50,308 nt of DNA from an uncultured Acidimicrobiia bacterium (GTDB lineage: Bacteria > Actinomycetota > Acidimicrobiia > Spongiisociales > JAOTWH01), in contig CAYFYE010000007.1 of NCBI GenBank assembly GCA_964347285.1, forward strand, positions 1 through 50,308, in the 5' to 3' direction. Shown here in pieces: positions 12,140 to 32,547 of the stretch (positions are counted from its first letter, which is position 1; the number at the start of each line of letters is the position of its first letter). Below the pieces are notes generated by a model. The model saw nothing but the letters and a program-made list of their open reading frames with translations. It was not told the origin of the DNA and made no database searches. A program made the position numbers and the translations under genes.

Positions 12140-12616
12140 GTGGCCGATCCGATGACCAGGCGCAAGTTCCTCGCCCGGACCACCGTTGCCATCGGAGCGG
12201 TCCTGACCGCCGGCCTCGCCGTTCCAGCCGTCGCTTACGTGCTCGGCACGGCCGGCCAGAGGGCCCGTACCCTGGAGTGGAAGCCTCTCGGGGCGGCCGG
12301 CAAGATCGAATTGGGCATCCCGACCCTCTTCAAGATCACCGTCGAGCGCACCGCCGGCTGGGTGACCCAGGAGGAGGAGATCTCGGTGTACGTGATCACC
12401 GAGAACGGTCGGGATTTCGTGGCCCTCTCCAACGTGTGCACCCATCTGAGCTGCCGGGTGCGCTGGGTCGACGATCAGCAGTCGTTCTTCTGTCCGTGCC
12501 ACAACGCCGTGTTCTCGAAGACGGGTGAGGTCGTGTCGGGTCCTCCGCCGCGACCGCTCGACCGGTTCGAGGTCAGGACTGAGGCGGGACAGGTCCAGGT
12601 GGCGGTGGAGGTTTGA
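12140..12616 (+). CDS. qcrA: Rieske [2Fe-2S] subunit of a menaquinol:cytochrome c reductase
   Basis: Tat motif TRRKFL plus TM; CTHLSC and CPCH boxes; GPPPRPL. GTG start behind GGAGGG. Confidence 0.92.
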   Translation: MADPMTRRKFLARTTVAIGAVLTAGLAVPAVAYVLGTAGQRARTLEWKPLGAAGKIELGIPTLFKITVERTAGWVTQEEEISVYVITENGRDFVALSNVCTHLSCRVRWVDDQQSFFCPCHNAVFSKTGEVVSGPPPRPLDRFEVRTEAGQVQVAVEV

Positions 12617-12617
12617 T

Positions 12618-13277
12618 GTGACTGAGGGGCCCGGAACCTGGCTGGAGGAACGGACGGGCGCCCGGACCGTCTGGGAGACGCTCTTTCTTCGCAACATCCC
12701 CAAGGTGAACTGGCTCTACACCCTGGGGAGCGCCACGCTATTCGTGGTGGTGAACCAGATCGTCACCGGGATCCTGCTCACCATCTACTACGTGCCCAGT
12801 CCCCAGGACGCCTACGACACCGTCAACTTCATCGACAGCAGCCTTCCGGCCGGATGGCTGATCCGGGGCATGCACCGCTGGGGCGCCACCGCCATGGTGG
12901 CCCTCGTGCTTCTCCACATGTTGCGGGTCCTGTACCACGGTGCTTACAAGTATCCCCGGGAGATCACCTGGATCACCGGCGTGATTCTGCTACTGATCAC
13001 CCTGGCCTTCGGATTCACCGGGTACCTGCTCCCGTGGGATCAGAAAGCCTTCTGGGCCACCACGGTGGGGACCAGCATCATGGATGCAGTTCCCGGTATC
13101 GGCGACTGGCTGTTGCGCGCCGCCCGCGGCGGAGAGGAGTTATCTGCCGTAACCCTGTCCCGGTTCTTCGGGATCCACGTGTGGATCCTTCCTGCCGCGC
13201 TGCTGGTCACGCTTGGTTTCCATCTCTACCTCGTGGTCAGGAACGGCATCACCGAGCCGCCCCGCAGGAAAGACTGA
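12618..13277 (+). CDS. qcrB: Cytochrome b, short b6-type (N-terminal half)
   Basis: TGILLTIYYVPS, GWLIRGMHRWGA, LHMLRV, FTGYLLPWDQ, RFFGIHV, FHLYLV; 219 aa. Confidence 0.92.
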   Translation: MTEGPGTWLEERTGARTVWETLFLRNIPKVNWLYTLGSATLFVVVNQIVTGILLTIYYVPSPQDAYDTVNFIDSSLPAGWLIRGMHRWGATAMVALVLLHMLRVLYHGAYKYPREITWITGVILLLITLAFGFTGYLLPWDQKAFWATTVGTSIMDAVPGIGDWLLRAARGGEELSAVTLSRFFGIHVWILPAALLVTLGFHLYLVVRNGITEPPRRKD

Positions 13278-13283
13278 TCTCCG

Positions 13284-15368
13284 ATGAAAGATGAGGAGAA
13301 GAGGGAGTACCTCGAGGAGTACCAGGAGGCCAAGAAACGGGGCATCCCGTTCTTCCCCGACGCGATCTTCAAGGATGCCGTTGTTGCCCTGCTGGTGTTC
13401 CTGGCACTGGTCGGTTTGGCCGCCTTCATCGGCTCCGAGCTCGACGAACCCGCCGATCCGGCCGCCGAGTTCGATCCCCGACCCGAGTGGTATTTCCTGT
13501 TCCTCTTCCAGCTGCTGAAGCACTTCCCGGGAAACCTGGAGTTCGTCGGCGCGGTCGTGCTTCCCACCGTGGTCATCATCCTCCTGTTCGCCCTGCCCTG
13601 GCTCGACCGCTCCAGGCGCCGCCATATCCTGGCCCGCCCCGTCGTGCTCGGAGTGAGCCTCTTCGTGATTGCCGGCGTCGTGCTGCTGAGCGTTCAGGCT
13701 CTGCTGGAGACCCCGCCTCCCTCCGGTGTCGAGGCGGCCGGCGATCCGGTGGCCGCCCTCTACACCGACAACTGCGCCGGTTGCCACGGGGGAGTGGTCA
13801 CCGTTCCCGAAGGCGTCGACCTGATCACAGTGATCACCACCGGCGGTCACGAGGGCATGCCCTCCTGGAGCGCCGACCTCTCGTCGGACGAGATCGACGC
13901 ACTGGCCGGCTTCATCCTTTCGCCGAGCGGCTTCGCCGTGTTCGAGTCGTCGTGCGCCGAGTGCCACGAGGTCGCCGACCTGAGCGCTGCCAGCCCATCC
14001 GACTTCCGGGCGGCCCTCCAGGAGGGCACCGACTTCGCCCCCCACGCCGGTGCCGGGACCCCCGATTTTGCCGCGGTCCTGTCGCCCCAGAGTCGCACCG
14101 CTCTGCTCAACTTCCTGGTCGCTCCCGACGGCCAGCGGCTCTTTGCCGTCAACTGCTCGTCGTGTCACGGGAGTGCGGTGGCCTGGACGGGGAGCCGAGA
14201 GGAGCTGCGCCAGGTCATCGAACAAGGAGGGCAGCACCTCGACATGCCGGCAATGGGGGCCATCCTCAGCGACACCGAGGTGGCCCAGCTGGCCGACTAC
14301 GTGGTGATGCCGACCGGTGCGACCGAGGGCAGCGCGCTGTTCGCCCGGCACTGCACGACGTGCCACGGTGGCCGGATCCCCACCGCCGAAACCCTGGAAG
14401 AGGCCACCGTCGCCATCACCCAGGGTGGAGGTCACGAGGACATGCCGGTGTGGGGAGAGATCCTGACCGAGGAACAACTCGACGCGCTCACCGATTACGC
14501 GCTCGAAGCGGCGCGGGGCACTCCGGTCATGGCCGGCCAGGAGCTGTACGCCGCCAACTGTGTGGTCTGTCATGGGGAATTCGGCGAGGGCGGACCTAAC
14601 CCGGCCAACCCCGCCCAGATCATTCCCCCGATCAGCACCGCCGGCTACCTGTCCACGCGCGATGACTTCACGCTGCGGGCCATCATTTCCCAGGGCCAGC
14701 CCGACTTCGGGATGTCTCCATTTGGCCTGGCCTTCGGCGGCTCTCTCGATGGGGAAGACGTCGACGCATTGGTGGCCTTCATCAGGTCGTGGCAGGACAA
14801 CCCGCCGGTGGAGCTGCCTCCCGAGGTCCAACGAGGACCTTTGGCGGGAACTCCGGCCGAGGTGTACGAGGAGTTCTGCGCCCAGTGCCATGGATTGGAG
14901 GGTGAAGGCGGAATTGGGCCGTCGTTCCAGGATCCCGCATTCCAGACGGGGATGAGCGACGCCGAGCTCGTCGAGACGATCGATCTCGGACATGCCGCCA
15001 CCGCCATGATCGCCTGGGGGGAGGTGCTCACCGACCCTCAGATCGAGGGCCTGGTCGAGTTCATCCGGCGGCTGGGGGGAATCGAAGGAGCCGAGGTCTC
15101 GTTCGCCAACGATGTGCTGCCGATCTTCGAGGCCGAGTGTGTGGTGTGCCATGGGGCGTCGGGGAACTGGGCCGCCGACAGCTACCAGGCGGTGATGGGG
15201 ACCGGCGATTCGGCCCCGGTGGTGATTCCCGGCGACCCGGATGAGAGCGTGCTCGTGCAACGGCTGGAGGGGACCGAAGGGGCGCTGATGCCCCCGGCCG
15301 GGAAGTGGCCGGACAGCCAGATCCAGCTCGTCCGGGACTGGATCGCCGCCGGCGCCCAGGACAACTGA
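13284..15368 (+). CDS. qcrC: Cytochrome b6 subunit IV (PEWY) fused to seven c-type cytochrome domains
   Basis: PFFPD, RPEWYFLF and three TM segments, then CAGCH, CAECH, CSSCH, CTTCH, CVVCH, CAQCH, CVVCH; the last domain is planctomycete cytochrome c-like. Confidence 0.88.
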   Translation: MKDEEKREYLEEYQEAKKRGIPFFPDAIFKDAVVALLVFLALVGLAAFIGSELDEPADPAAEFDPRPEWYFLFLFQLLKHFPGNLEFVGAVVLPTVVIILLFALPWLDRSRRRHILARPVVLGVSLFVIAGVVLLSVQALLETPPPSGVEAAGDPVAALYTDNCAGCHGGVVTVPEGVDLITVITTGGHEGMPSWSADLSSDEIDALAGFILSPSGFAVFESSCAECHEVADLSAASPSDFRAALQEGTDFAPHAGAGTPDFAAVLSPQSRTALLNFLVAPDGQRLFAVNCSSCHGSAVAWTGSREELRQVIEQGGQHLDMPAMGAILSDTEVAQLADYVVMPTGATEGSALFARHCTTCHGGRIPTAETLEEATVAITQGGGHEDMPVWGEILTEEQLDALTDYALEAARGTPVMAGQELYAANCVVCHGEFGEGGPNPANPAQIIPPISTAGYLSTRDDFTLRAIISQGQPDFGMSPFGLAFGGSLDGEDVDALVAFIRSWQDNPPVELPPEVQRGPLAGTPAEVYEEFCAQCHGLEGEGGIGPSFQDPAFQTGMSDAELVETIDLGHAATAMIAWGEVLTDPQIEGLVEFIRRLGGIEGAEVSFANDVLPIFEAECVVCHGASGNWAADSYQAVMGTGDSAPVVIPGDPDESVLVQRLEGTEGALMPPAGKWPDSQIQLVRDWIAAGAQDN

Positions 15369-15397
15369 CCCGCCACCCGCTCCCATCCGGCGGCCCG

Positions 15398-16276
15398 ATG
15401 GGTCGCCTGCCCGGGCCGGTGCAGGTCCCCACCAACGGCATCGAGCTGAGCGTCGTCGTCGAAGGTGAGGGCTACCCGGTGGTCCTCCTTCACGGGTTCC
15501 CGGAGCTGGCCTACTCCTGGCGGTTTCAGGTCCCGGCGCTGGCCGAGGCGGGCTTTCGAGTCATCGCCCCCGATCTGCGCGGCTACGGAGGCTCGGACAA
15601 GCCGCCCGACACCGAGGCCTATCGGCTGTCGGCCCTGGTCGCCGATGTGCTCGGCGTGCTCGACGCCCTCGAGGGGGAGCGGGCGGTGGTGGTGGGCCAC
15701 GACTGGGGCAGCATCATCGGCTGGAACCTGGCCCTGGCCCATGCCGACCGTGTCGAGCGCCTGGTGAGCCTCAACGTTCCCTACCGTGGGCATCCCGGCG
15801 GTTTCCCCAACACCACGTACATCCGGGAGCATCTGGCCGACCGGTTCGGCTACGTGCTCTTCTTTCAGGAGCCCGGCCCGGCGGAAGCCTGGTTCGCCCA
15901 GGATCTGGCGCTGCGGCTTAGAACGATCTACCAGGGGGTGGCCGCCGACCCCTCGTTCATGGGCGACGACGAGTTCGCCGTCTATCTGAACGCGTTTCGG
16001 GCCGGGGGTATGACCGGTCCGCTCAACTATTACCGCAACATAGACGCCAACTGGGCGGCCACCGAAGCGTCGGCCGGGTCGCCCGTCCGGGTTCCGGCCC
16101 TCATGGTCACGGCCGACTCGGATCCGGTGCTCCCGGCATCGCTCGCCGAGGGCATGGATCGCTGGGTTTCCGAGCTGCGGGTCGAGCACATCAGGCGCTG
16201 CGGGCACTGGACGCAGCAGGAACGGCCCGGTCCGGTGAATGAGGTTCTGTTGGACTACCTCGGAGATCTTCGCTAG
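15398..16276 (+). CDS. Epoxide hydrolase-like alpha/beta hydrolase
   Basis: LLHGFPE, PDLRGYG, GHDWG, LNYYR, GHWTQQE motifs. Confidence 0.9.
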   Translation: MGRLPGPVQVPTNGIELSVVVEGEGYPVVLLHGFPELAYSWRFQVPALAEAGFRVIAPDLRGYGGSDKPPDTEAYRLSALVADVLGVLDALEGERAVVVGHDWGSIIGWNLALAHADRVERLVSLNVPYRGHPGGFPNTTYIREHLADRFGYVLFFQEPGPAEAWFAQDLALRLRTIYQGVAADPSFMGDDEFAVYLNAFRAGGMTGPLNYYRNIDANWAATEASAGSPVRVPALMVTADSDPVLPASLAEGMDRWVSELRVEHIRRCGHWTQQERPGPVNEVLLDYLGDLR

Positions 16277-16315: not shown

Positions 16316-17905
16316 CTAGTAGCCCGATGTCGGGGTGTGGCACTGGGTGCACTTGATGGTCTTCCACACCTCGCCGATGTCCACCGGGTGTTCGAATTCC
16401 AGCCCGGCGATGTCGTCGTCGAGCTCCATCAGGTCGTCGGATGGGCCCTGGGCAACGATAGAGTGACAGCTCTCGCAGTCACTCGAGATCCGCTCGCCGG
16501 CCTCGTTCTCCAGCTCGGTGAAGTGGCACCGGAAGCATCCATCGTTGACGAAGTGGCTGAGATGGTTGACGCGGGCCCGATAGTCGGTCTTCATCTCGGG
16601 GAAGAAGTTTTGGTTGTAGATCCGCTGCAGGACGTCTCCCGCCTGCTCGACCTTGTCCCTCAGGACTTCCATCTCGTCGGGGTACTGCGTCGAGTAGAAC
16701 TCCACGAGCCCGGTCCGGATCGCTTCGTTTGCCTCTTCCCGGGTCTCGTACGAGTCGTTCAGCAGCTCGAGACCGACCTTGCGGATGAAGTGGAGATCCT
16801 TGGCGATGGTGCCTTTGGCCAGCTCCAGGTTCATCGCCGTGGCCGGTGGTTCGAACGTGTGGCTGGGACGGTTGTGGCAGTCCATGCAGTCGAACAGGCG
16901 GATCTCGGTGTCCCCGTCCTCGGGGTCGGGGATCTCGGCGTTGGGGTCCGCGTACACAGTCACGCTGCCGTCGCTCGGGTCGGTCACTCGGACCCAGGGG
17001 ATCACTTCCCGTTTCTCGTCCGTGGCGATGTACTCCACCTGGGCGCTGCTCAGCATGTGCCAGTGGATCCCCTCGAGCTTGCCGGTGCGGGGATTCCCGC
17101 CCCCGATGTTCATGAGGAGGCTGATCGTCCACGGCGAGTTGTCCTCGTCGGTCCGGTAGTAGCTGCGGTTGACCAGCTTCTGTCCGATGAATTGCTGCGG
17201 CCAATGGCAGCCCTCGCAGGTCGCCTGGGCGGGCCGGAGGGTTTCGACCGGAGTACCGATGGGCCGTTCGAAGCTGTTGGTGGCGGTGGCGTAAACCTGA
17301 CGGATGCCGTCGATCTTCGATTTGACCCAGAACGACCCGCCGGGACCGATGTGGCAGTCCACGCAGGGCACTCGGGCATGGGGTCCGTTGGCGTAGGTGA
17401 CGTTCTGCGGATCCATCACATGGCACGACTCGCCGCAAAAGCCGACCGAGTCGGTGGCCTCATATGCCTTGAACCCGCCCCAGGCCACGACGGCCACGAA
17501 GACGCCGCTGAGGCCGAGGAAGAACCACAGGTTGCGCATGTAGTGAGGGTCGGAGACCTCGATCCGTAACACGAAACGAACTCTCTCTCCGCGCCTTCGA
17601 GCCGCCCGGACCTGAAGCCATATGGCGACCAAGAAGAGAATCACTCCGATGGTGACCACGGCCGGGGCGGCGACGAAGGTCACCAGCGAGCGATAGGGGT
17701 TCTCGGACTTCGTGGCGATGTCGACGGCGGCGAGGACGACGAACGCGAATACGCCGGCGACGATCATGGCCCCGCCCACGGCCGCCAGCGGGTGGCGGTA
17801 CAGGGTCCTCGTTTCGAGTTCGCCGCCCGCGGGTTCCGGGCCGTTGCCCGAACTTGGGACCTCGTCCGGCTCCCGGTACTCCTCCGTGGGGCCTCTATCG
17901 CTCAG
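16316..17905 (-). CDS. NapC/NirT-related membrane heptaheme cytochrome c (ImcH-like quinol oxidase)
   Basis: Three N-terminal TM segments; CGESCHVM (CX3CH-x-M), CVDCH, CEGCH, CMDCH, CFRCH, CESCH, CTQCH; GIHWH. Start probably CTG 17905 behind GAGGT; nearest GTG is 17779. Confidence 0.8.
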   Translation of the reverse strand: MSDRGPTEEYREPDEVPSSGNGPEPAGGELETRTLYRHPLAAVGGAMIVAGVFAFVVLAAVDIATKSENPYRSLVTFVAAPAVVTIGVILFLVAIWLQVRAARRRGERVRFVLRIEVSDPHYMRNLWFFLGLSGVFVAVVAWGGFKAYEATDSVGFCGESCHVMDPQNVTYANGPHARVPCVDCHIGPGGSFWVKSKIDGIRQVYATATNSFERPIGTPVETLRPAQATCEGCHWPQQFIGQKLVNRSYYRTDEDNSPWTISLLMNIGGGNPRTGKLEGIHWHMLSSAQVEYIATDEKREVIPWVRVTDPSDGSVTVYADPNAEIPDPEDGDTEIRLFDCMDCHNRPSHTFEPPATAMNLELAKGTIAKDLHFIRKVGLELLNDSYETREEANEAIRTGLVEFYSTQYPDEMEVLRDKVEQAGDVLQRIYNQNFFPEMKTDYRARVNHLSHFVNDGCFRCHFTELENEAGERISSDCESCHSIVAQGPSDDLMELDDDIAGLEFEHPVDIGEVWKTIKCTQCHTPTSGY

Positions 17906-17954: not shown

Positions 17955-17974
17955 GTAGGGTCCAGAGTCCCAAG
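17955..17974. promoter_or_regulatory. DosR/DevR-like palindrome upstream of the ImcH-like gene
   Basis: GTA-GGGTC-CAGA-GTCCC-AAG; a weaker adjacent copy begins at 17977. Confidence 0.6.
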
Positions 17975-18022: not shown

Positions 18023-19222
18023 TCATCGTTGTGGGGCGCCCGCCAGGATCCAGTCGCGCACTGCCTCGATCTCGTCCTCGGTCAACTGGGCGGGATGGCC
18101 TCCGGCGACCTGTGTAACCAGCACCTGGCTCTGCTCGGGCTCACCGGCTACGATCCCCGGTCCGCCGGCGCCACCGGCGATTGCGGCCTCATAGGAGCTG
18201 AGATCGAGGCCGGCGGTGGCGTTGGCCGAACCGTGACACACGCCGCACTTCTGCGAGAACAGCTCGGCAAATTCGCCGTCCCAGGTGGCGGCCGCAGAGG
18301 GCGCCACCGTCGTAGCTCCGGGTGCCGTCGAAGTGGTCGTGGTGCCGGGCGAAGTCGTGGTCGGTGCCGGAAGGGTCGTTTCCGTGAGGGGGGCGAACAC
18401 GGTGACCGGCTCGGCAGGCTCGATGGTCTGAATGGCGGTCTCCTCGAAGCTCACGAACAGCCAGATGCCCGCCAGCATGATCCCGGCAAAGGCCCCGTAG
18501 GCCGGCAGGTATCTGCGACGACGCTGTATCCGCTCTTCGGGATCCGTTCGGCCTCCCGACTCCCCTGCCTTTATGGCGGCCAGCTCGAGGGCGTGCTCTT
18601 CGAGCATCTCCTCCCGGGAGATGTACCCGGTGAAGATCGTGGTCTTGAAGGTTCTGATGTGCACGTGGTAAATGTGCCAGACGACGATCGCCAGCACGGC
18701 CAGCAGCGCTTCGCCGCCGTGGATGGCCCTGGCGGCAGGGATGAACTCCCCCGGGAGGAATCGGGCGCTGGCAATGGGGTTCCACAGCAGGAAGCCGGTG
18801 ACGATCATGATGACCGTTCCCCATACCAGGGACCAGTACTCGATCTTTTCCTCGAAGGTGAACCTGCCCTGCTCGGGTCTGCGGTCGCGCCACCCCAGGT
18901 TGTAGCCGAGCGACTGCCAGGCGGCCCGCAGATCGTCGACCCCGGGGATCATTGCCCGGGGGGTGCGGAGGACGTAGGCACGGTATCCGGCAACCCCGAA
19001 GTGATACACGACCGCCACCATGAGGATCGCGGAAAAGACTCGGTGGATGATGCGGACGGCCTCGATGCCTCCGAGCAGGTCGATGATGGCCTGCGAAAAA
19101 GACGCAGCGTGATACCGCTGCACCAGACCGGTGACCGCCAGCGGGACGAAGGTCCCGATCTGGACCCAGTGCTCGGCCCGATCCGAGATCGAGAAGCGTT
19201 TGTAGCGTTGAGCCTCAGTCAC
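18023..19222 (-). CDS. FdnI/HydC-type cytochrome b with a Thr-rich linker and a C-terminal monoheme cytochrome c domain
   Basis: RF...DRAEHW, RIIHR, GRFTFEEKIEYW, AIHGGEA, WHIYHVH; TTTSPGTTTTST linker; CGVCH. Confidence 0.85.
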   Translation of the reverse strand: MTEAQRYKRFSISDRAEHWVQIGTFVPLAVTGLVQRYHAASFSQAIIDLLGGIEAVRIIHRVFSAILMVAVVYHFGVAGYRAYVLRTPRAMIPGVDDLRAAWQSLGYNLGWRDRRPEQGRFTFEEKIEYWSLVWGTVIMIVTGFLLWNPIASARFLPGEFIPAARAIHGGEALLAVLAIVVWHIYHVHIRTFKTTIFTGYISREEMLEEHALELAAIKAGESGGRTDPEERIQRRRRYLPAYGAFAGIMLAGIWLFVSFEETAIQTIEPAEPVTVFAPLTETTLPAPTTTSPGTTTTSTAPGATTVAPSAAATWDGEFAELFSQKCGVCHGSANATAGLDLSSYEAAIAGGAGGPGIVAGEPEQSQVLVTQVAGGHPAQLTEDEIEAVRDWILAGAPQR

Positions 19223-24425: not shown

Positions 24426-25768
24426 CCGACTGGCAGCGGCGACTCGAGGAAACGACCCTCGAACCGGCTCGGACGACTACCCGTGCCTACTACCTCGTCG
24501 TGGCCGGACTCATGGCGATCCTCGCCGTGGCCGTGTATGCCTGGTCGGTCCAGATTCGCGACGGCCTCGTGGTGACCGGCATGCGAGACCGCATCTCATG
24601 GGGCCTCTACATCACGATGTTCGTGTTCTTCATCGGCATCAGCCATGCCGGCACCCTCATCTCTGCCATCTTGCGGGTGTCCAACGCCACGTGGAGGACG
24701 CCGGTCACTCGCATGGCCGAGTTCATCACCACCGTGGCTCTGCTGACCGGTGCGCTGTTCGTCGTCGTCGACCTGGGTCGTCCCGACCGACTGCTCAGCG
24801 TCCTGGTGCACGGACGGTGGCAGTCACCGATCGTTTGGGATGTGCTGGCGATCTCCACCTACCTCGTGGCCAGCATGGTGTACCTGTACTTGCCGATGAT
24901 TCCGGACCTGGCCCTGTTCCGCGATCGGCTCAAGGGTCGAGTCTCGGCGTGGCGGATCTTCTGGTACCGGCACCTCGCCATCAACTGGAAGGGGACCGAG
25001 CGCCAGAAGTCCAAGCTGCACACGTCTATCTCGATCATGATGATCCTCATCATCCCGATAGCCGTGTCGGTGCACACCGTCGTGTCGTGGATATTCGCCA
25101 TGACGCTGCGGGAGGCGTGGAACAGCGCCATCTTCGGCTTCTTCTTCGTAGCGGGGGCCATCTTTTCGGGGATCGCCACGCTGATCCTCATGATGGCGAT
25201 CCTGCGGCGGGTCTATCGCCTCGAGGAGTACATCACCCAAAAGCACTTCCTTTACCTCGGTTACCTGATGGCGACCATGGCGGCGGTGATGATCTATGCC
25301 AACGTTTCCGAGTACGTCACCTCCGGTTTCAAGTTCGAGGAAGGCTCGGAGTTCATCTTTCGCCAGCTCTTCGTTGCCGAGTTCGCCCCGTACTTCTGGT
25401 TCTACTTCATCGGCGGCCTGATCGTTCCCATCGCGCTCATGGTGCTGCCACCGACGCGCACGATTTGGGGGGTCGTCGTCGCTGCGATCCTGGTGGATGC
25501 CGGGATGTGGGTGGAGCGTTACTTCATCGTCGTTACCGGTTTGCGAGCGCCGCTCATGCCGTACGAGCCCGCCAACTACGCCCCGACCTGGGTCGAGTGG
25601 ATGATCACCCTGGGCGGCTTTGCCTTCTTCGCCCTGCTGGTGACCCTGTTCGTCAAGGCGTTCCCGATCATGGCGGTGTACGAGATGACGGAGGAGCGTG
25701 AGAAGGTCACAGCCCCGGCGGTCGCCGAGCCGGTTGCCGGTACGCTTTCGGAAGGAGCACCGTCATGA
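24413..25768 (+). CDS. NrfD/PsrC/ActC-family quinone-interacting membrane subunit
   Basis: GLVVTGM, WGLYITMFVFFIGISHAGTLISAILR, TRMAE, DLGRPDR, SPIVWDV, VSVHTVVS, WVERYFIV, YAPTWVEW motifs. Confidence 0.92.
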   Translation: MEPLTDWQRRLEETTLEPARTTTRAYYLVVAGLMAILAVAVYAWSVQIRDGLVVTGMRDRISWGLYITMFVFFIGISHAGTLISAILRVSNATWRTPVTRMAEFITTVALLTGALFVVVDLGRPDRLLSVLVHGRWQSPIVWDVLAISTYLVASMVYLYLPMIPDLALFRDRLKGRVSAWRIFWYRHLAINWKGTERQKSKLHTSISIMMILIIPIAVSVHTVVSWIFAMTLREAWNSAIFGFFFVAGAIFSGIATLILMMAILRRVYRLEEYITQKHFLYLGYLMATMAAVMIYANVSEYVTSGFKFEEGSEFIFRQLFVAEFAPYFWFYFIGGLIVPIALMVLPPTRTIWGVVVAAILVDAGMWVERYFIVVTGLRAPLMPYEPANYAPTWVEWMITLGGFAFFALLVTLFVKAFPIMAVYEMTEEREKVTAPAVAEPVAGTLSEGAPS

Positions 25769-27141
25769 AACGCTGGCGTAGGCGGGCGATCTCGCTGACC
25801 GTCTTGGTGGGCGCGGCGTTGTCTCTACTCCAGGGAGGGGCGGCAGCCGACCATCTCGTGATCGAGCTCACTGCTCCCGAGGAGGCGACCCTCGGGGAGT
25901 CGCTTCAGATCACCGCCGCAGTGTACTGGGCGGAAGACGGAGAGCCCGCCGACGGGATACCGATAACGTTCTTCACCGATGCGGCATTCGCCGGGGTCAT
26001 CGGTGACGTCGAGCTGGGCACGGTCACCACCAACGAGATCGGGGTGGCCACGTTTCCGGTCTCCTTCTTGGTCAGCCGTCAGCACACGATCCGTGCCGAG
26101 GCAGTGGCTCAACCGGGTGCCGAGCCGGAATCGGTCACGGTCCCGGTTCTGGCCACCCGGCAATTGGTCACGTCGGAGGCCGGAATTCGGATCCCCGGGA
26201 TCGGAGGCTGGCTGCTGGTGGTCCTCATCGGCTCCGTTTGGGCGATCATGATCTTCGCCGCTTTCCGGGTCGTCGTGGTTTCCCGGGCCCATGAGGAAGG
26301 CAGGGGCGTCTCCGACGCGCTGGCCGAAGGTCGCCGGGAGGGATGGGCCAGCAGGCACCACTTCAATCTGGCGGTGCTGGTGGCCGGGATCATGATCGTG
26401 CTGAGCCTCGGCTTGCTGGTTCTCCTGGTGAGAAGCCCCGATACCCATGCCAACCTCAACCCGGAGGGCTACGACCGCACCGTGGTGGCCTATACCAACG
26501 CCTCCTATCTGTATCCGGGGCCCGGACTCGCCGCAGGCAGCTTCACTGGGGATCTCGTGGAGGACGGTCGGCTCTTGTTCGTGAGCAAGGGCTGCGCCGG
26601 GTGTCACGGTCTCGAGGCCGAGGGCGCTGTTGCCGCGGCGTCTCCCGCGCTGGTCAGCCGGGACTGGCTCGGCGATGTGGTTCGCTCGGGGATCCGGGGG
26701 CTGATGCCGTCCTACTCCGAGGTCGAAGTGAACGAGCCCGGACTCGACGCCATCTACGCGTTCTTCGAGGAAGCTCGCCAGGCCCTCGAGGCGGAGTCCC
26801 CCGCAACAACGGTGGGCGAGCCCGAGGCGACGGCTCCCCTCGCTGCGCCCGAGGAGCACCCGACCCCCACCTACACCGACGATGTCGCGCCGATCTTCCG
26901 GGCTCAATGCGTCGTGTGCCATGGGGACGCCGGTGGGTGGAGCGCCGCCGACTACCAGTCGGTGATGACGAGCGGGGACCACGGCCCGACGGTGGTGCCG
27001 GGCCGCCCGGAGGAGAGCTTGCTGGCCCAGAAGATCCTGGGAACCCAGACCGAGGGAGCGCTGATGCCCCCGGGCGGGCGGCTATCCGACCAGGACATTC
27101 ACACGATCGTTGACTGGATCCTGGGCGGAGCTCCGGAGTGA
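25765..27141 (+). CDS. Membrane diheme cytochrome c (signal, Ig-like beta domain, 2 TM, two c domains)
   Basis: KGCAGCH...LMPSY and CVVCH...LMPP (planctomycete cytochrome c-like); ATGA coupling to the nrfD-like gene. Confidence 0.8.
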   Translation: MKRWRRRAISLTVLVGAALSLLQGGAAADHLVIELTAPEEATLGESLQITAAVYWAEDGEPADGIPITFFTDAAFAGVIGDVELGTVTTNEIGVATFPVSFLVSRQHTIRAEAVAQPGAEPESVTVPVLATRQLVTSEAGIRIPGIGGWLLVVLIGSVWAIMIFAAFRVVVVSRAHEEGRGVSDALAEGRREGWASRHHFNLAVLVAGIMIVLSLGLLVLLVRSPDTHANLNPEGYDRTVVAYTNASYLYPGPGLAAGSFTGDLVEDGRLLFVSKGCAGCHGLEAEGAVAAASPALVSRDWLGDVVRSGIRGLMPSYSEVEVNEPGLDAIYAFFEEARQALEAESPATTVGEPEATAPLAAPEEHPTPTYTDDVAPIFRAQCVVCHGDAGGWSAADYQSVMTSGDHGPTVVPGRPEESLLAQKILGTQTEGALMPPGGRLSDQDIHTIVDWILGGAPE

Positions 27142-28832
27142 GCATGGATCGGAAACGGCAGGCCCCGAGATTGTTCCTCTTCGGGGCGTCCGCGCTGGTT
27201 GCGGTCGCATTGGCCGTAGCCGGTGCCGCAGCAGCGGCCGGTGCCGCCACCCCGAAGCAGGATCTACCGACCGCCAGAGCCCTCTCTTCAGAGCTCCAGT
27301 ACCAGATCGATGACATCGATGAAGACTCCGAGCCGATCTACGCCGAGCAATGCGCTGCCTGCCATGGCGCGGACGGCGAAGGCGGCGTGGGGCCCGCCTT
27401 CACCGAGAGCACGCTCACGTTGCCCGAGCGAGTGGATCTCATCACGGAGGGCCGCGGCGGCATGCCGGGATTCGACGCGACCCTCACCGCCGACCAGATC
27501 GCTGCGATGGCCTCCTTCCTGGACACATTCGTCGCCCAGGAGATCTACAGACAGCAGTGTGCCCCCTGTCACGGTGCCGATGGCGAGGGCGGGATCGGCC
27601 CGGGACTACAGCAAAGCAACCTGACGGACGCCGAGGCACTGGACATCATCGGTCAGGGGCAGGGGGCCATGCCGGCCTTCGGCCCCACCCTCACCGCCGA
27701 CCAGCTCGCCGCCGTGACGGATTTCACCGTCGGCCTCAGATCCATCGAGGCCATAGGGGAACAGGTCTACGTGGAGCAGTGTGCGCCTTGCCACGGCCTC
27801 GAGGGCGAGGGCGGGGTCGGCACCAACCTGCAGACGAGTGTTCTGCCACGACAGGAGCTCTCGACCCTCATCACCGAGGGGCGTGGCGGTATGCCGGCTT
27901 TCGCTGCCACGCTCGGCCCGGAGGAGATCGAGGGTGTCGCCGACTACGTTGCCGGGCTGCGGGCGGCGACGGAGGAGCCGAGCGCCGCGGAAGCGGGGGC
28001 CGAGCTCTTTTCCCAGCATTGTGCCGCTTGTCACGGCGCCGACGGTTCCGGAGGTACCGGTCCATCCCTGACGGAGTCCGACCTCTCCTTCAGTGAGATG
28101 GTCTTGCTGGTGGCGGAAGGGCGAGGGCCCATGCCTCGCTTCTCAGAGACTCTGTCCGGCGATGAGATTCAGGCGGTGGCCACTTACACCGCCGGGCTCG
28201 AGCCGGCGGAGATCGCCCAACCAGAACCGGCCGGGGCCGAGCTCTACTCCCAGCAATGTGCCGGTTGCCACGCCGCCGATGGCTCGGGGGGGGTGGGACC
28301 CTCCCTGCAGACTGCGGCTCTTTCGAACGAAGAGCTGCTGGCGCTGGTCTCCGACGGCGCCGGCTCCATGCCCGGCTTTGCCGCTACGCTCACCGACGAT
28401 GAGATCCAGGCGCTGATCGCCTACGTCCGGGAGTCGCTGGTCGTCGAAGTCGAAGAGGGCGCTGCCGGGCCGACCGGGCAAGAGCTGTTCGAGGCCGAAT
28501 GTGCGCCGTGTCATGGAGTTCAGGGCGAAGGAGGCATCGGGCCCTCGTTGCGCGAATCCGATCTCTCGGTGAACCACGTGATCTCGCAAATCTTCGGTGG
28601 TCACGGTCCCGAAATGCCGGCATTCGAGGGAGAGCTCGACTCCGGCCAGGTCCAGGCAGTGGCCCAGTACGTCCTGTCTCTGCGGGATGTGGCTCAGCCG
28701 GACGAGGGCGGCGGAGTGGGCCTGTTTGTGATCGTGGCTGTCATCGTCGGCGCTGTGGTGGTGATCTCCGCAGGACTGGCTTGGCTGAGAACACAGAAGA
28801 GGGACCGGTCGGACTCCGACGTCCAGGTCTGA
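27138..28832 (+). CDS. Membrane-anchored cytochrome c built from six tandem class I (c551/c6-like) domains
   Basis: CAACH, CAPCH, CAPCH, CAACH, CAGCH, CAPCH, each followed by G.GG.G and MPxF; N-terminal signal and C-terminal TM. Confidence 0.88.
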   Translation: MSMDRKRQAPRLFLFGASALVAVALAVAGAAAAAGAATPKQDLPTARALSSELQYQIDDIDEDSEPIYAEQCAACHGADGEGGVGPAFTESTLTLPERVDLITEGRGGMPGFDATLTADQIAAMASFLDTFVAQEIYRQQCAPCHGADGEGGIGPGLQQSNLTDAEALDIIGQGQGAMPAFGPTLTADQLAAVTDFTVGLRSIEAIGEQVYVEQCAPCHGLEGEGGVGTNLQTSVLPRQELSTLITEGRGGMPAFAATLGPEEIEGVADYVAGLRAATEEPSAAEAGAELFSQHCAACHGADGSGGTGPSLTESDLSFSEMVLLVAEGRGPMPRFSETLSGDEIQAVATYTAGLEPAEIAQPEPAGAELYSQQCAGCHAADGSGGVGPSLQTAALSNEELLALVSDGAGSMPGFAATLTDDEIQALIAYVRESLVVEVEEGAAGPTGQELFEAECAPCHGVQGEGGIGPSLRESDLSVNHVISQIFGGHGPEMPAFEGELDSGQVQAVAQYVLSLRDVAQPDEGGGVGLFVIVAVIVGAVVVISAGLAWLRTQKRDRSDSDVQV

Positions 28833-28928: not shown

Positions 28929-31166
28929 CTACGGTCTGGTCATTCCGCTGGTGTCTCCACCGATGTCGGCGAGCGAGTCGTACAGCAGCTGCAGCACGTA
29001 CGCCGGGTTGTGGGCGAACCCACCGGGGTCTTTGGAGGCGTACTGGTAGTTGTACGCAGCTCTCAGCAGCCTGGGCGTCCAGGTGACGTATCGGTTGTCG
29101 AAGGCTGCCTCCTCATCGTCGGGTTCGCCATCGCCATCGGAATCGATGAAGAAGTACGGATAGGCGGCTGAGGAATAGATCACCGGGTCCACCCCCTCGG
29201 TCGCGACCGTGTAGTCCTGTATCGCGGCGAGGAGGGCGGCCTTGAGGGTGTCGATCTCTCCATAGATGCCCTCGGCCTCGTTGCCATCGCCGTCGAAGTC
29301 CCCTTCGGTCAATCGGATGTCCTTGAGGTCTTCGAACGCGGCGACGTCGCTGTGACATGCGGAGCACTCCTGGACCTTGACCTCGAGCTTGTGCTGGTCG
29401 TGGCACTCGGTGCAGGTGTCGAACGGCTCGACGTGCTCACGGCGGCCCGCGTAGGTGTTGCCTTCGTATTCGTAGCCGCCCATCGCCTCGGTGCCGAACA
29501 GAGTGGCACCGGCCGCGAAATAGTGGATGTTCACGAACCGGAGATCCTCGCTCACCGTGTCGTCGGGAGTGTCGCCGATCACGTTGTTGACGCTCACCGC
29601 CGATTCGCGGCCCTGGTGACAGGTCATGCAGAGGTTGGCATCCGGGTCACCGCTGTCGACCGTCTTCCCGCTGGGGAACGTGACCTCCAGGGCCTCGTGG
29701 CGAGTGTACGTCTCCAGATCGTTGTGGCACGTCGAACACAGGAAGCCGTTGGTCGGCGGCTGGTTTATGACGACACCTTGCTCGAGGAACAGGGGCAGGC
29801 CGCCGGCAGAGTGGCAACGAGCGCACATGTAGGGCCCGCCGCCGGGCACCACCGCCGGATCATCCTCGTCCCAGTGACGGAACGCCTCCTCGGAACCGGC
29901 GAAGTGCCCATGGTCGATCCGGCTCATGCCCTCAAGAGATACTGGAGTGCTTAGCGCTTCGTTGAGGTTCTCGATCGAGTCGTACATCAGCTGGATGTGG
30001 TACTTGCCGCCGTGGGCGAAGTTGCCCGGGTCCTTGAGCGAGAACTGGTAGTTGTAGGCCGCCTTCAGGAGCCGTGGCGTCCAGGCGTTGTACTGGTTGG
30101 GGAACGCCGCCTCGTCTCCGTCCACCTCGCCGTCGCCGTCCGTGTCGATGAAGAAATACGGGTAGGCGGCGCTGTCGTAGACGATCGGCGTACCGGACAC
30201 CTCTTCGGCGTACAGCTGTAGGGCCTCCAGGAGCTTCTCTCTCAGTCCCTCGAGCTCGAACGGCATGCCCTCGGTGATGTCTCCGTCTCCGTCGTAGTCG
30301 ACCTGGGAGCCGGGCATCCGGTTCTGTTTGAGGTCTTCGGTGGTCTGCAGGTCTACGACCACGCCTCCGCCGTCGGCCAGCACCGGGTTGCTGTGGCAAG
30401 TGGCGCACTCGTCGAGCTTGAGCTCGAGGGTGTGTGGGTCGTGGCACTGATGGCACGCGGTGTAACCCTCCACATGGGTGAAGAAGGCGTCGTAGGTCTT
30501 GCCGTCGTACTCATAGCCGCCCTTGGCCTCGGTGCCGTACTTCGATGCGGCGGCGGCGTAGTAGTGGATGTTGAGGAAGCCGAGATCCTCGCTCACCTCG
30601 TCATCGTCGGCACCGGCCTCCTCGATGGCGGCGTTCACGCTGACGGTCGAGTGCCGCCCCTGGTGGCAGTTCATGCACCGGGCCTCGCGTCCGAGGCCGG
30701 TGAGGACCAACCCGGACGGCATCTCCACCGAGTCGAGGGTCAGAGTGACGTCGTTGTGGCACGTCACGCACGAAATCGTGGTCCCCGGATCGACGTCGGC
30801 TTCGACCGAGCCGAAGGCGCTGCCGTCGACACCGAGGAAGTCGAGGTGGCCTGTTTGACTGTGGCATCTGGCACACGTCGACGGTATCACCGGCGGGTCG
30901 TCCTCGTCCCAGTGGCGGAATGCCTCGGCGTTGACGTCGTTGTGGCCCGACCCCGTCCATCTTTCGAGGAAGGGGACTGTGACCTCGGCGGCCGCGACCG
31001 GGGGCGCCTCGGCAGCGGTGGTCTCGGGAGCCGCCTCGGTCTCCTCCGGGGCGGCCGTTTCGGGCGCGGCTGTAGTGTCGGCTGCCCCATCTTCGCACGC
31101 CGCCAACACCAGCGAGAACGCGATCAGAACTGCCCCGAATGAGAGCAACTTGCTGTGCCGTCGCAC
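28929..31166 (-). CDS. Decaheme cytochrome c lipoprotein (two tandem pentaheme modules)
   Basis: Lipobox LAA-C; Ala/Glu/Thr/Pro linker; CARCH, CVTCH, CMNCH, CHQCH, CATCH / CARCH, CSTCH, CMTCH, CTECH, CSACH; each half ends AAYNYQ..KDPG.FAH..Y..QL.YDS. Confidence 0.88.
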   Translation of the reverse strand: MRRHSKLLSFGAVLIAFSLVLAACEDGAADTTAAPETAAPEETEAAPETTAAEAPPVAAAEVTVPFLERWTGSGHNDVNAEAFRHWDEDDPPVIPSTCARCHSQTGHLDFLGVDGSAFGSVEADVDPGTTISCVTCHNDVTLTLDSVEMPSGLVLTGLGREARCMNCHQGRHSTVSVNAAIEEAGADDDEVSEDLGFLNIHYYAAAASKYGTEAKGGYEYDGKTYDAFFTHVEGYTACHQCHDPHTLELKLDECATCHSNPVLADGGGVVVDLQTTEDLKQNRMPGSQVDYDGDGDITEGMPFELEGLREKLLEALQLYAEEVSGTPIVYDSAAYPYFFIDTDGDGEVDGDEAAFPNQYNAWTPRLLKAAYNYQFSLKDPGNFAHGGKYHIQLMYDSIENLNEALSTPVSLEGMSRIDHGHFAGSEEAFRHWDEDDPAVVPGGGPYMCARCHSAGGLPLFLEQGVVINQPPTNGFLCSTCHNDLETYTRHEALEVTFPSGKTVDSGDPDANLCMTCHQGRESAVSVNNVIGDTPDDTVSEDLRFVNIHYFAAGATLFGTEAMGGYEYEGNTYAGRREHVEPFDTCTECHDQHKLEVKVQECSACHSDVAAFEDLKDIRLTEGDFDGDGNEAEGIYGEIDTLKAALLAAIQDYTVATEGVDPVIYSSAAYPYFFIDSDGDGEPDDEEAAFDNRYVTWTPRLLRAAYNYQYASKDPGGFAHNPAYVLQLLYDSLADIGGDTSGMTRP

Positions 31167-31224
31167 GACCCGTCCTCCCTGCTTTTGGTACCAGACACAG
31201 TGTCGACAAAACGCCGGCTCATCG

Positions 31225-31244
31225 ATAGGGGCCTATGGCTCTAT
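31225..31244. promoter_or_regulatory. DosR/DevR-like palindrome upstream of the decaheme gene
   Basis: ATA-GGGGC-CTAT-GGCTC-TAT. Confidence 0.55.
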
Positions 31245-31452
31245 TGGCGGGTGATTTTTCGCGCTTCTGCGGACAGTCGACCGTGACCGAGCGTCCTCGT
31301 CCGGTGGCGGAGGGTCTCCTCCGAACCGGTGAAGGCCGCTGATCGTTGCGGCGCTTGCACGAGAACCGGTGCCGCGAGAGCTCCGCCCGTGCCTGTCAGC
31401 ACCACTCCGCGGGCGACCCGCCGAGTCGAGTGTCAGGGCGGCGGCTCGGGGG

Positions 31453-32547
31453 TCAGGGTGCTGTGGTCGTCGTCGTGGTCTCGGAGACGACTGCTTCCGG
31501 CAGTACCTCGAGCGCGTACTCCAGCAAGGCCCTGGCGAACGGCGGATTGTGGACGCCCTTGCTCTGATCTTCGAGGACGAACATGTAGTTCCACATCGCG
31601 TTGGCGACTTCTTCGGGGAACGTGCCCTCGACCGACCGGTTCTCCGACAGTTCCTCGCCTTCGCCGATGTCGACCAGGATGCCGGCGGCGCTCAATCGAG
31701 CCTTGGTCTCCGCCAGCATCTCCTCGATCTCGGTCTGGACTCCATTGCGATCGAAGGTGTCCAGATCGGCATGACAGCTCTGGCAATTGTCCAGGCTGGG
31801 TTCGAACGTGTGATTGCGGCTCTCGCCCATGTGGCAGCCGACGCAGGTGTTCTCGACCGCATAGTGGAAACTCTCCGAGCCGGTGACCCCAAGTCCGCCG
31901 ATGCCGAGCAACATCTGTGATTCGACGCCATGATGTGTGCCGAAGCGAGTGCTACCGGTCTCGATCTCACCGCCGGTCGCCACCGGCAACTCGTTGCGGA
32001 TCTGGTGGCAGTTCGCGCACAGGTTGCCGAGACCCCCGTCGAACGTGCCGCCGGTTGTCTCCATCTCCGCGGGTTGGGCATCCCCGGTCAGGGAGAAGTC
32101 GGCAGCCGTGTAGGTGGTGTGGATGTCGTGGCACGTGCGACAGGTATATGGCGAAACGTTGACTATGCCCTCCACCGAGGGGTCGTGCGGTGGAAGTCCC
32201 GCCTCGATGCGCGTTTCGGCGCCCTCGCTCCCGTGACACCCCGCGCAGTTGGTGTTTTCGCCTCGTATGAATGCCTCTCCGGCTCCGTGCAACGACTCCT
32301 CCAACTGCGCCTGCTTGGAGACGAGGAGCGTCCCGCTTTCGTGGCATTCGGTGCACGTGAGGTCGGTCGCGACGGCCGCCTCGGCGGCAGGACCGGGGGG
32401 CCCCTCAGGACCGGGAGGACCGGGGGGGCCTTCAGGACCGGCAGGACCGGTATCACCACTGCAGCTGGCCAGGGCAAGGAGAAGGCCGACCATCAGCGCC
32501 AAGGGGACGTACCGGCTGAGGGGGCGGTGTCGGTGTTCTCGGTGCAT
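31453..32547 (-). CDS. Hexaheme cytochrome c lipoprotein with a collagen-like stalk
   Basis: Lipobox LAS-C; (Gly-X-Y)8 GDTGPAGPEGPPGPPGPEGPPGPA; CTECH, CAGCH, CRTCH, CANCH, CVGCH, CQSCH; WNY..VLEDQSKGVHNP; GGAGGAG RBS. Confidence 0.88.
   Translation of the reverse strand: MHREHRHRPLSRYVPLALMVGLLLALASCSGDTGPAGPEGPPGPPGPEGPPGPAAEAAVATDLTCTECHESGTLLVSKQAQLEESLHGAGEAFIRGENTNCAGCHGSEGAETRIEAGLPPHDPSVEGIVNVSPYTCRTCHDIHTTYTAADFSLTGDAQPAEMETTGGTFDGGLGNLCANCHQIRNELPVATGGEIETGSTRFGTHHGVESQMLLGIGGLGVTGSESFHYAVENTCVGCHMGESRNHTFEPSLDNCQSCHADLDTFDRNGVQTEIEEMLAETKARLSAAGILVDIGEGEELSENRSVEGTFPEEVANAMWNYMFVLEDQSKGVHNPPFARALLEYALEVLPEAVVSETTTTTTAP

Follow-up and report, generated by a model that had tools for sequence, protein, structure and literature searches.

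The 50,308-nucleotide (nt) stretch of DNA analysed here (the window; contig CAYFYE010000007.1 of GenBank assembly GCA_964347285.1, from an uncultured bacterium of the actinobacterial class Acidimicrobiia) contains, between positions 12,116 and 32,547, an island of genes for multihaem c-type cytochromes and quinone-reacting membrane proteins. We interpret this island as serving, on balance probably, a hypoxia-induced form of extracellular electron transfer that is directed outward from a cell without an outer membrane. As predicted from its relatives, the conserved core of the island is an ImcH-type protein, a split CbcL-type unit and an OcwA-type lipoprotein; a complex of Rieske protein, cytochrome b6 and heptahaem cytochrome c (b6c) is associated with this core. 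The island is a good, if unproven, candidate for the respiration of a mineral or a partner.

In the mechanism that we propose, falling oxygen would lead a putative DosR-like regulator to switch on the genes that carry its boxes. Quinol would then be oxidised at the ImcH-type, the split CbcL-type and probably the b6c membrane modules, and electrons would pass to outward-facing haem domains and from there to stalked lipoproteins in or beyond the wall. These lipoproteins would reduce an acceptor that does not enter the cell, such as Fe(III) or Mn(IV) oxides, humics or a partner. The homologies, synteny, co-occurrence and boxes are documented below; we infer in what order the carriers act, which way electrons flow, what accepts them and that the lipoproteins are exposed at the surface.

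Haem motifs and cell envelope

The window is the entire contig C7. Its assembly totals 2.63 Mb in 187 contigs and reaches 90.5% completeness, a figure that applies to every statement below on what was not found in the genome. A six-frame count of the window yielded 47 CxxCH motifs in eight open reading frames (ORFs), with 7, 6, 1, 9, 2, 6, 10 and 6 motifs, plus one CX3CH, and all eight ORFs have coding-type GC content at third codon positions. The total of 48 haem-c motifs in eight proteins that had been reported in the initial annotation of this DNA is thereby confirmed. Coding-like ORFs of the whole assembly hold 84 CxxCH motifs, of which 47 lie inside the 20-kb island stretch, and a single ORF outside the island has more than two (12 motifs, contig C3). 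Matches to Pfam and NCBIfam models also agree with the four distinct quinone-reacting modules described earlier: Rieske/b6, NapC/NirT-type, FdnI-type b and NrfD-type.

The initial annotation had further placed the island in a monoderm host and had seen neither a terminal reductase or oxidase nor a porin in the window. Both statements hold. No terminal reductase, oxidase or beta-barrel family was found by Pfam among the 44 window ORFs, several small ones of which match no family, and Omp85/BamA was not found in the genome, while seven diderm control genomes were positive. Unlike porin-cytochrome conduits (MtrCAB/Pcc), which have an outer-membrane beta-barrel partner, the island has no barrel in the scanned window ORFs and its genome has no detected Omp85. 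The genome does encode Lgt, and this, together with lipoboxes and low-complexity linkers, bears out the suggestion that two of the multihaem cytochromes are lipid-anchored and stalked.

Membrane proteins of the core

The heptahaem protein encoded on the minus strand at 16,316-17,779 (487 amino acids, aa) is a predicted quinol dehydrogenase with the published architecture of ImcH, the quinol oxidase through which Geobacter sulfurreducens, at its inner membrane, serves extracellular acceptors of high potential. By hydropathy, it has three transmembrane-like segments (residues 4-22, 35-53 and 81-99); a CX3CH motif at residue 115, directly past the third segment, is followed by six CxxCH motifs at residues 139, 188, 298, 415, 435 and 477. 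The NapC/NirT family PF03264 spans residues 85-171 (E = 1.8e-10), and the NrfH model TIGR03153 also matches (E = 3e-18). ImcH homologues are described as proteins of 495-519 aa with three N-terminal transmembrane helices, an atypical CX3CH beside them, six CX2CH motifs and a likeness to NapC/NirT, and distant members share 31-49% identity with G. sulfurreducens ImcH (Zhong and Shi, PMC6295460). The window protein has in common with ImcH the three N-terminal helices, the CX3CH beside the membrane part, the six CxxCH motifs, the NapC/NirT-like stretch and a length of about 490 aa, and differs in its host, an actinobacterium. The available part of the same survey lists single ImcH homologues for Actinobacteria (one, in Intrasporangium) and for Chloroflexi. 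A cluster look-up, which serves as a lead only, returned like-sized NapC/NirT-type clusters from Acidobacteriota, Bacteroidota, Verrucomicrobiota and Thermodesulfobacteriota.

The second component of the core is encoded by two genes of the minus strand. A nonahaem c-type cytochrome (19,215-20,387; nine CxxCH) has an N-terminal signal or anchor and a C-terminal membrane helix (transmembrane-like residues 25-43 and 357-375). Its gene overlaps by 8 nt that of an FdnI/HydC-type dihaem cytochrome b (18,023-19,222; PF01292, E = 6e-17; TIGR01583, E = 4.9e-16), in which a proline- and threonine-rich linker leads to a C-terminal monohaem c domain of the PSCyt1 type (PF07635, E = 1.3e-8). Together the two proteins have about six helices. 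CbcL of G. sulfurreducens consists of nine CX2CH motifs followed by six HydC/FdnI-like helices (PMC6295460). Geobacter depends on quinol dehydrogenases of both architectures, ImcH and CbcL, to reach its extracellular acceptors. Because the 9-haem protein ends in one membrane helix and its gene overlaps a separate gene for an FdnI-type b, the pair appears CbcL-like in architecture but split; the nine CxxCH motifs followed by an FdnI-type b membrane domain are common to both, and the extra PSCyt1 domain of the b protein sets it apart from CbcL. At E<=1e-3, 7454 of 8000 scored database proteins belong to the 9-haem family. Among the best 120 matches of the 9-haem search, in which longer lengths were not searched, there were no fused CbcL-type forms, only split forms of like size. 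No CbcL homologues were counted in Actinobacteria or Chloroflexi in Table 1 of PMC6295460, and we suspect that this count missed split forms. The 9-haem gene is preceded on its own strand by a 132-aa ORF (20,585-20,983) that lacks a signal peptide and matches neither a Pfam nor an NCBIfam family.

Stalked lipoproteins of the NrfA fold

Two minus-strand genes encode lipoproteins that would face outward. The shorter one (31,453-32,547; six CxxCH) has a lipobox, LASC, followed by eight collagen-like G-X-Y triplets, and is of the OcwA/OmhA kind. The longer one (28,929-31,166; ten CxxCH) has the lipobox LAAC, a disordered linker of about 40 residues rich in proline, threonine, alanine and glutamate, and, in tandem, two pentahaem modules of the NrfA type, both of which contain a DxDGDGD loop. 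Each half of the decahaem shows homology to the hexahaem lipoprotein (E = 9e-13), which is why we describe the decahaem as two such modules in tandem and the hexahaem lipoprotein as one module plus one haem. At least four consecutive G-X-Y triplets occur near the N-terminus in 38 of 44 hexahaem relatives, and a lipobox-like motif in 34 of them; among 30 aligned decahaem relatives, 23 have a lipobox-like motif and none has a G-X-Y run.

OcwA of Thermincola potens (PDB 6I5B) and OmhA of Carboxydothermus ferrireducens (PDB 6QVM) are cell-surface terminal reductases of Gram-positive iron reducers. Single-sequence searches of PDB with either lipoprotein gave no relevant match. A 44-row hexahaem profile run against all PDB sequences ranked OmhA first (1.4e-14) and OcwA second (2.1e-13), with NrfA behind (2.7e-11). 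The structure model of the hexahaem lipoprotein (predicted local distance difference test, pLDDT, 85.1) agrees: Foldseek matched it to OcwA with E = 1.5e-6, and VIA gave OcwA Z 15.7 (root-mean-square deviation, rmsd, 3.3 over 223 residues), OmhA Z 15.2 and NrfAs about 13. The model of the decahaem has a pLDDT of 77.7, falling below 50 in the linker (residues 22-63). With the whole decahaem, Foldseek found no match at E<=1e-3, although OcwA and OmhA were ranked at the top (Foldseek E = 0.03), so that its likeness to NrfA and OcwA rests on the Z-scores of a second look, in which residues 60-408 gave NrfA Z 12.2 (rmsd 3.9, 248 residues), OcwA Z 11.6 and OmhA Z 10.7. A decahaem profile likewise found no significant match among PDB sequences, the best being 6r2q_A (E = 0.006).

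The hexahaem lipoprotein has in common with OcwA and OmhA the NrfA-type pentahaem module with C-terminal helices, an aligned HH pair and a host without an outer membrane. The two solved proteins have nine or 11 haems, with a c554-type N-terminal tetrahaem module and a second open haem, whereas the window lipoproteins have six or ten haems and no such module. They are moreover only about 22-28% identical to OcwA and OmhA, and, unlike these, are lipid-anchored on a stalk that is collagen-like or disordered. The tandem layout of the decahaem is missing from the list of the homologous group of OcwA and OmhA in the available text of PMC9250108. Compared with NrfA/NrfH, the fold of each lipoprotein module is the same and the 7-haem protein has an NrfH-like start; the window lipoproteins differ in their lipid anchors and stalks, in the tandem duplication, and in that all 16 of their haem motifs are CxxCH, the CxxCK of NrfA being absent.

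Both families are large. The hexahaem family comprises 1676 representative clusters at E<=1e-3, and 4923 of 8000 scored proteins belong to the decahaem family at the same threshold, with longer forms in Myxococcales and other diderms. Ardenticatena maritima was considered as an example of the decahaem family and rejected: as far as the available part of PMC5808234 describes it, its surface cytochrome has seven haems and its genome encodes no protein with more.

Conservation of the core in related genomes

A scan of one genome per species identified at least 563 stretches that encode a relative of the decahaem, and 80 loci were kept. They come mostly from Anaerolineae-type Chloroflexota and from metagenome-assembled genomes of Acidimicrobiia/Actinomycetota, and many are short contigs. 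A gene was counted as present when its tblastn match had E<=1e-8 and the best segment covered more than 40% of the query. The 9-haem and the b cytochrome genes were each present in 51 of the 80 loci and adjoin one another in all 51, and the ImcH-type gene was present in 31. Less frequent were the genes for NrfC (20/80), b6 (12/80), Rieske (10/80) and the b6c heptahaem (8/80). In Chloroflexota the order is a 9- or 14-haem gene, the b gene and the decahaem gene on a single strand, flanked by housekeeping genes, and no gene for a catalytic subunit was found in the Chloroflexota decahaem loci examined. In Candidatus Leptofilum, with gyrA as a flank, the set is preceded by a gene for an 8-haem protein with a collagen-like linker. 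Collagen-stalked multihaem ORFs, with at least five G-X-Y triplets, occur in 31 of the 80 loci.

Five island genes were also sought in 201 genomes of Acidimicrobiia. The decahaem was found in six, the ImcH-type gene in eight, the 9-haem gene in nine, the b6c heptahaem gene in six (E<=1e-60) and the hexahaem lipoprotein gene in five. All these occurrences are confined to the same nine genomes, which belong to one order and each of which has the decahaem, the hexahaem lipoprotein or both; none of the five genes was found in the other 192. From this distribution it follows that the island has three parts: a conserved core, an associated b6c-heptahaem complex and an independent NrfCD module. The view of the initial annotation, in which these genes form one island, is therefore upheld for the multihaem core, whose genes co-occur within the same nine genomes, and revised in that the island is composite, its NrfCD module being distributed independently. 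The closest orthologue of the hexahaem lipoprotein in the class sample (70% identity; genome G138, C10:22563-23597) has one in-frame TAG in the matched frame.

Full-length decahaem ORFs from 78 of the 80 loci were used for a tree. Nine Actinomycetota rows, the window and four unlabelled rows form one group (Shimodaira-Hasegawa-like approximate likelihood ratio test, 94), which is nested, under a midpoint root, in a supported set of 27 rows, 14 of them from Chloroflexota. This nesting and the rarity of the genes in the class suggest acquisition by transfer. The tree also suggests Chloroflexota as the donor of the decahaem, and does no more than suggest it, because the root is only a midpoint root and no clade test was made.

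DosR-type palindromes upstream of island genes

Six palindromes that resemble the boxes of the hypoxia regulator DosR lie upstream of island genes. That of the ImcH-type gene, TAGGGTCCAGAGTCCCAA (17,956-17,973), is 176 nt upstream; a weaker one with two mismatches, CAGGGCCGAGAGGCCCGA (20,423-20,440), is 35 nt upstream of the 9-haem gene, and TAGGGGCGAACGGCACTA (21,111-21,128) is 128 nt upstream of the small ORF at 20,585-20,983. The decahaem gene is preceded at 59 nt by TAGGGGCCTATGGCTCTA (31,226-31,243), and the hexahaem lipoprotein gene at 183 nt by a perfect palindrome, TAGGGCCTTTAGGCCCTA (32,731-32,748). A further palindrome, TAGGGGCTAATGCCCCTA (23,210-23,227), lies 43 nt upstream of the annotated start of NrfC. 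With at most one mismatch, the degenerate form TAGGGNCNNNNGNCCCTA has five sites in the window, where 0.05 would be expected, and at most one in any shuffle. Genome-wide it has 16 sites in 2.63 Mb, of which five are in the island.

Because the pattern was taken from window sites, relatives provide the independent test of it. The 19 actinobacterial loci among them, two of which cover one and the same region, amount to 356 kb and contain 16 TAGGGNCNNNNGNCCCTA sites; in the 68 other related loci (1.07 Mb) there is none. Boxes lie about 60-110 nt before the start of the decahaem match in loci L010, L016, L018/L099, L031, L047, L060, L095 and L097, and before ImcH-type genes in L016, L019, L023, L047 and L060.

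The strict DevR core motif, GGGACNNNNGTCCC, was tried and shows no enrichment (six matches against 7.46 expected). Enrichment is confined to the form in which position 6 is free: this position varies among the sites here, which leaves the strict GGGAC core unenriched. The Dev box is described as an 18-bp palindrome with critical G3, G4, G5 and C7 in both halves (Chauhan et al., PMC3177182), and the five window sites with at most one mismatch keep G3, G4, G5 and C7 in both halves. The 18-bp palindrome, these positions and an A/T-rich centre are common to the window sites and the DevR/DosR boxes of Mycobacterium tuberculosis. Differences are the variable position 6, the targets, which here are multihaem cytochromes, and the regulator, which is putative. 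DosR-type boxes upstream of island genes predict induction by low oxygen.

Elsewhere in the genome, the 12-haem gene of contig C3 (C3:4133-6655, minus strand) has the palindrome TAGGGTCCAACGGCCCTT at C3:6729, 74 nt upstream, which makes it a probable member of the same regulon. The box at C100:4470, TAGGGACTAAAGGCCCTA, is perfect and precedes by 77 nt a gene for a 726-aa multicopper-oxidase-like protein.

The b6c complex and the NrfCD operon

PF00355, PF00033 and PF00032 match three consecutive plus-strand genes, which together specify a Rieske protein and a split cytochrome b (b6 and subunit IV). The Rieske 2Fe-2S subunit (12,116-12,616; PF00355, E = 2.3e-11) has one membrane anchor by hydropathy and a twin-arginine translocation (TAT) motif, TRRKFL; its match to NF010001, the b6-f iron-sulfur subunit, has E = 1.6e-17 and is below the model cut-off. 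Cytochrome b6, the N-terminal half of the split cytochrome b (12,618-13,277; PF00033, E = 1.5e-50), likewise matches NF002990 below cut-off (E = 9.5e-68), and most likely starts at the in-frame GTG at 12,618, two bases past the Rieske stop, rather than at 12,525. The third gene (13,284-15,368) encodes a subunit-IV (PetD)-like part with three transmembrane-like segments (PF00032, 6.8e-11) that is continued by seven class-I c haem domains with seven CxxCH motifs (PF13442, 4e-65, six stretches), the last of them of the PSCyt1 type (PF07635). In Bacillota, b6c-type complexes have subunit IV fused to cytochrome c. A Rieske protein, b6 and a subunit IV fused to one or more c-type haem domains are common to these complexes and ours; the Bacillota type has one haem domain, and the window protein has seven, is rare in its class and is tied to the multihaem core.

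The NrfCD operon, also on the plus strand, begins with an NrfC/DsrO-type 4Fe-4S protein (23,271-24,425) that has an internal TAT-like motif. It matches PF13247 (3.7e-21) and, below cut-off, the DsrO model NF045797 (3.4e-50); in Pfam and NCBIfam it shows Fer4 domains only and no molybdopterin-like domain. An NrfD/DsrP-type integral membrane quinone-site subunit follows (24,383-25,768; PF03916, 7e-41; NF045798, 4.5e-42, below cut-off). The next two genes encode a dihaem membrane protein (25,765-27,141; two CxxCH), which has an Ig-like N-terminal domain, two helices, one class-I c and one PSCyt1 domain, and a hexahaem chain of six class-I (c550/c551-like) domains (27,138-28,832; PF13442, 3e-103, six stretches; NF045773, 8e-70) with a C-terminal anchor (transmembrane-like residues 527-545). 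Alternative complex III, Qrc and DsrJOP all combine an iron-sulfur protein, an NrfD membrane subunit and c-type cytochromes in one operon, as here. The ActB with a molybdopterin-like domain, the pentahaem ActA and the two NrfD-type subunits of alternative complex III have no counterpart in the window operon, which has a single NrfD subunit, and in which dihaem and hexahaem class-I cytochromes replace ActA/ActE, QrcA or DsrJ; all of its NCBIfam matches are below cut-off. We regard the operon as a putative quinol:cytochrome c module like alternative complex III, which appears to be co-regulated here and lies outside the conserved core.

Three membrane modules end in paralogous PSCyt1 monohaem domains: the b protein (18,023-18,280), the b6c heptahaem (15,096-15,368) and the dihaem of the NrfCD operon (26,860-27,141), two of the domains being 53% and 36% identical to the third. 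These domains may be a common hand-over, docking or exit point for the three modules. In the translations, the class-I domains of the heptahaem (seven) and hexahaem (six) chains carry G..MP-type methionine motifs; two such chains would be equipment that a cell without a periplasm needs to reach its oxidases.

Other genes of the window

The other window ORFs are housekeeping genes: MoaC, MoeA, MoaD, NhaA, ilv genes and a class II ribonucleotide reductase. The last of these, B12-dependent and with a TSCPD domain, adjoins the island (35,117-38,632, plus strand); this type of reductase functions without oxygen. Non-redox genes for an alpha/beta hydrolase, a strictosidine-synthase-like protein and an AHSA1/SRPBCC protein lie between the cytochrome operons (15,305-16,276 and 21,372-23,109, both plus strand), and tblastn did not find them near the cytochromes of related loci. 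A class-I cytochrome c gene with one CxxCH (49,844-50,308, plus strand; PF13442, E = 1e-18) is cut by the contig end.

Respiratory genes in the rest of the genome

The genome has two loci for molybdopterin enzymes, a cytoplasmic-type formate dehydrogenase beside formate-tetrahydrofolate ligase, and NuoG, and no molybdoenzyme for anaerobic respiration was found in it. The formate dehydrogenase alpha match at C22:11696-12967 (locus L005) has one in-frame TGA, which may be a selenocysteine codon or a break. MoaC, MoeA and MoaD-like ThiS genes lie at window positions 2551-4997 (minus strand), and formate dehydrogenase and NuoG are the only molybdopterin enzymes found in the genome. Among genes of cytochrome c maturation, ResB was not found in the genome, but haem attachment is not in doubt because there are two matches to Cytochrom_C_asm. 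As judged from its genes, the recognisable acceptors of the organism would be oxygen and perhaps nitrite.

Weighing the alternatives

The initial annotation had likened the island to the multi-exit chain of Geobacter. The ImcH architecture, the split CbcL architecture, the relatives of OcwA and OmhA, the DosR-type boxes, and a genome in which neither Omp85 nor a respiratory molybdoenzyme was found all speak for such a chain, and it is modified in that NrfCD is distributed independently, the class-I wires also fit oxidases or a NirK-like enzyme, and the NrfA-type fold and the HH pair would also suit catalysis. Several observations weigh against outward electron transfer under hypoxia. The ImcH-type protein and the 9-haem/b pair are likened to their namesakes by architecture and family models, and CbcL has its HydC/FdnI-like b in the same polypeptide, whereas the window unit is encoded by two genes. 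The pattern TAGGGNCNNNNGNCCCTA was derived from the sites in which it is counted, and no box was found in the window before the Rieske operon. A box at C17:12329 lies 141 nt upstream of a gene for a Crp/Fnr-family regulator, which could be a target of the boxes or, as an alternative candidate to a DosR-type protein, their regulator. The carrier genomes are kin from a single order, so that the counts from the class sample overstate independence. Of the four other genomes with a close orthologue of NrfD (at least 63% identity), a single one belongs to the nine carriers. Four haem-copper oxidase loci were found in the genome (two aa3-type, one distant and one weakly ccoN-like), together with a NirK-like gene that scores 286.8 bits against a cut-off of 296.3, and the class-I cytochrome chains could simply serve these enzymes. 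To the same side belong the properties of the lipoproteins that would suit an enzyme, considered next.

Among the other explanations, the lipoproteins may be enzymes that reduce soluble oxyanions of nitrogen or sulfur (nitrite, hydroxylamine, NO, sulfite or tetrathionate), with the ImcH-type protein as an enlarged NrfH-like quinol donor, in an anaerobic detoxifying or respiratory pathway of the nitrite type that would lie outside the membrane; we consider this unlikely, yet the most serious of the three. The fold of the NrfA nitrite reductase is also that of both lipoproteins (Z 12-13), the hexahaem profile matches NrfA at 2.7e-11, and TIGR03153 covers the N-terminus of the 7-haem protein. The decahaem is unusually conserved (mean column identity 63% over 30 rows) and has its DxDGDGD loops. 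The HH of the hexahaem family, at residues 204-205 of the window protein, aligns with HH in OcwA and GVHH in OmhA and, by its place in the alignment (the structure model being haem-free), probably corresponds to the non-bonding distal histidines that PMC9250108 names for an open haem. OcwA itself, with its two open haems, is a slow reductase of nitrite and hydroxylamine in vitro (PMC6703420, PMC9250108), and in the genome NirS was not found and NirK lies just under its cut-off. Against catalysis, all 16 lipoprotein motifs are CxxCH and none is CxxCK, although some NrfA variants also lack the CxxCK lysine (PMC9250108). The family alignments contain six invariant non-motif histidines per module, for five or six haems, so that all haems could be bis-His. 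OmhA and OcwA outscore NrfA for the hexahaem by sequence and by fold, and stalks of 24-40 residues on lipid anchors, one of them collagen-like, would be unnecessary for a soluble substrate. The turnover of OcwA with nitrite is, moreover, far below that of NrfA (PMC6703420).

The chain might also run inward, with Fe(II), Mn(II), a partner cell or a cathode-like mineral as the source of electrons that the stalked cytochromes would pass through the class-I wires to oxidases or the NirK-like enzyme, while the b6c and CbcL-type modules would be able to reduce quinone. The 13 His/Met-type class-I domains across the two wires, the oxidase loci and the NirK-like gene would suit this direction, as would the finding that the b6c heptahaem gene adjoins a lipoprotein gene in several relatives; relatives of CbcL and MtoC are known from Fe(II) oxidisers as well as Fe(III) reducers (PMC6295460). 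The available part of the same paper, in contrast, reports ImcH relatives from reducers only. Since the RuBisCO large subunit was also not found in the genome, the DosR-type boxes point to low oxygen, where oxidases are least useful, and the nearest solved relatives are reductases of iron reducers, inward flow seems to us distinctly improbable. More improbable still is a plain aerobic toolkit, in which Rieske/b6 would be complex III and NrfCD alternative complex III, both feeding oxidases through anchored cytochromes c, with the other cytochromes nearby by chance. Class-I cytochrome domains with C-terminal anchors fit it, two further cytochrome b loci elsewhere in the genome would with the four oxidase loci make a branched aerobic chain, and the close orthologues of NrfD occur without the multihaem core. 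The b6c heptahaem, however, is not the housekeeping complex III of the class, because only 6 of 201 genomes have it, each of which also carries the 9-haem gene. Shared palindromes also tie the NrfCD operon to the multihaem genes, and an aerobic toolkit leaves no role for the ImcH-type, CbcL-type and OcwA-type proteins.

Within the reading that we prefer, outward electron transfer induced by hypoxia, a more far-reaching version is possible, and we hold it only tentatively, as rather doubtful in its entirety. The island would then be a complete hypoxia-induced regulon for extracellular electron transfer in Actinobacteria, possibly derived from Chloroflexota. Three quinol-oxidising complexes (ImcH-type, split CbcL-type and a dedicated b6c) would serve acceptors of different potential, those that end in a PSCyt1 domain would hand electrons over through it to wall-spanning cytochromes of two undescribed designs, a trimeric collagen-stalked hexahaem of the OcwA type and a decahaem of tandem NrfA modules, and all of these would be under a DosR-type switch.

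Implications for Acidimicrobiia and the OcwA family

Extracellular electron transfer has already been proposed, in general terms, for the multihaem cytochromes of Anaerolineae (10.1101/2021.08.23.457424, PMC7399161), and a 2020 count, as given in the available part of its source, included very few neutrophilic Actinobacteria with multihaem cytochromes (PMC7399161). A targeted literature search found no published study of a multihaem or extracellular electron transfer pathway in Acidimicrobiia. Searches of the literature found nothing that pairs collagen-like sequences with multihaem or c-type cytochromes, only one unrelated review that links OcwA with Chloroflexota and Actinobacteria and, supplements aside, no published description of the core, the tandem-module decahaem, the collagen-stalked cytochromes or their DosR-type boxes.

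The analysis replaces a loose count of 48 haems with a testable core: an ImcH-type protein, a split CbcL-type unit and an OcwA-type lipoprotein. It also links the Gram-positive surface reductases OcwA and OmhA to a far larger family beyond Bacillota, with 1676 hexahaem clusters and thousands of decahaem members. The stalked lipoproteins suggest a physical means of crossing the cell wall, and the DosR-type boxes make low oxygen the predicted inducer, a condition that is open to testing. Acidimicrobiia were among the most abundant classes in a marine sediment (PMC12175321). Extracellular respiration has barely been studied in this class, and a candidate pathway in such a group would, if true, matter.

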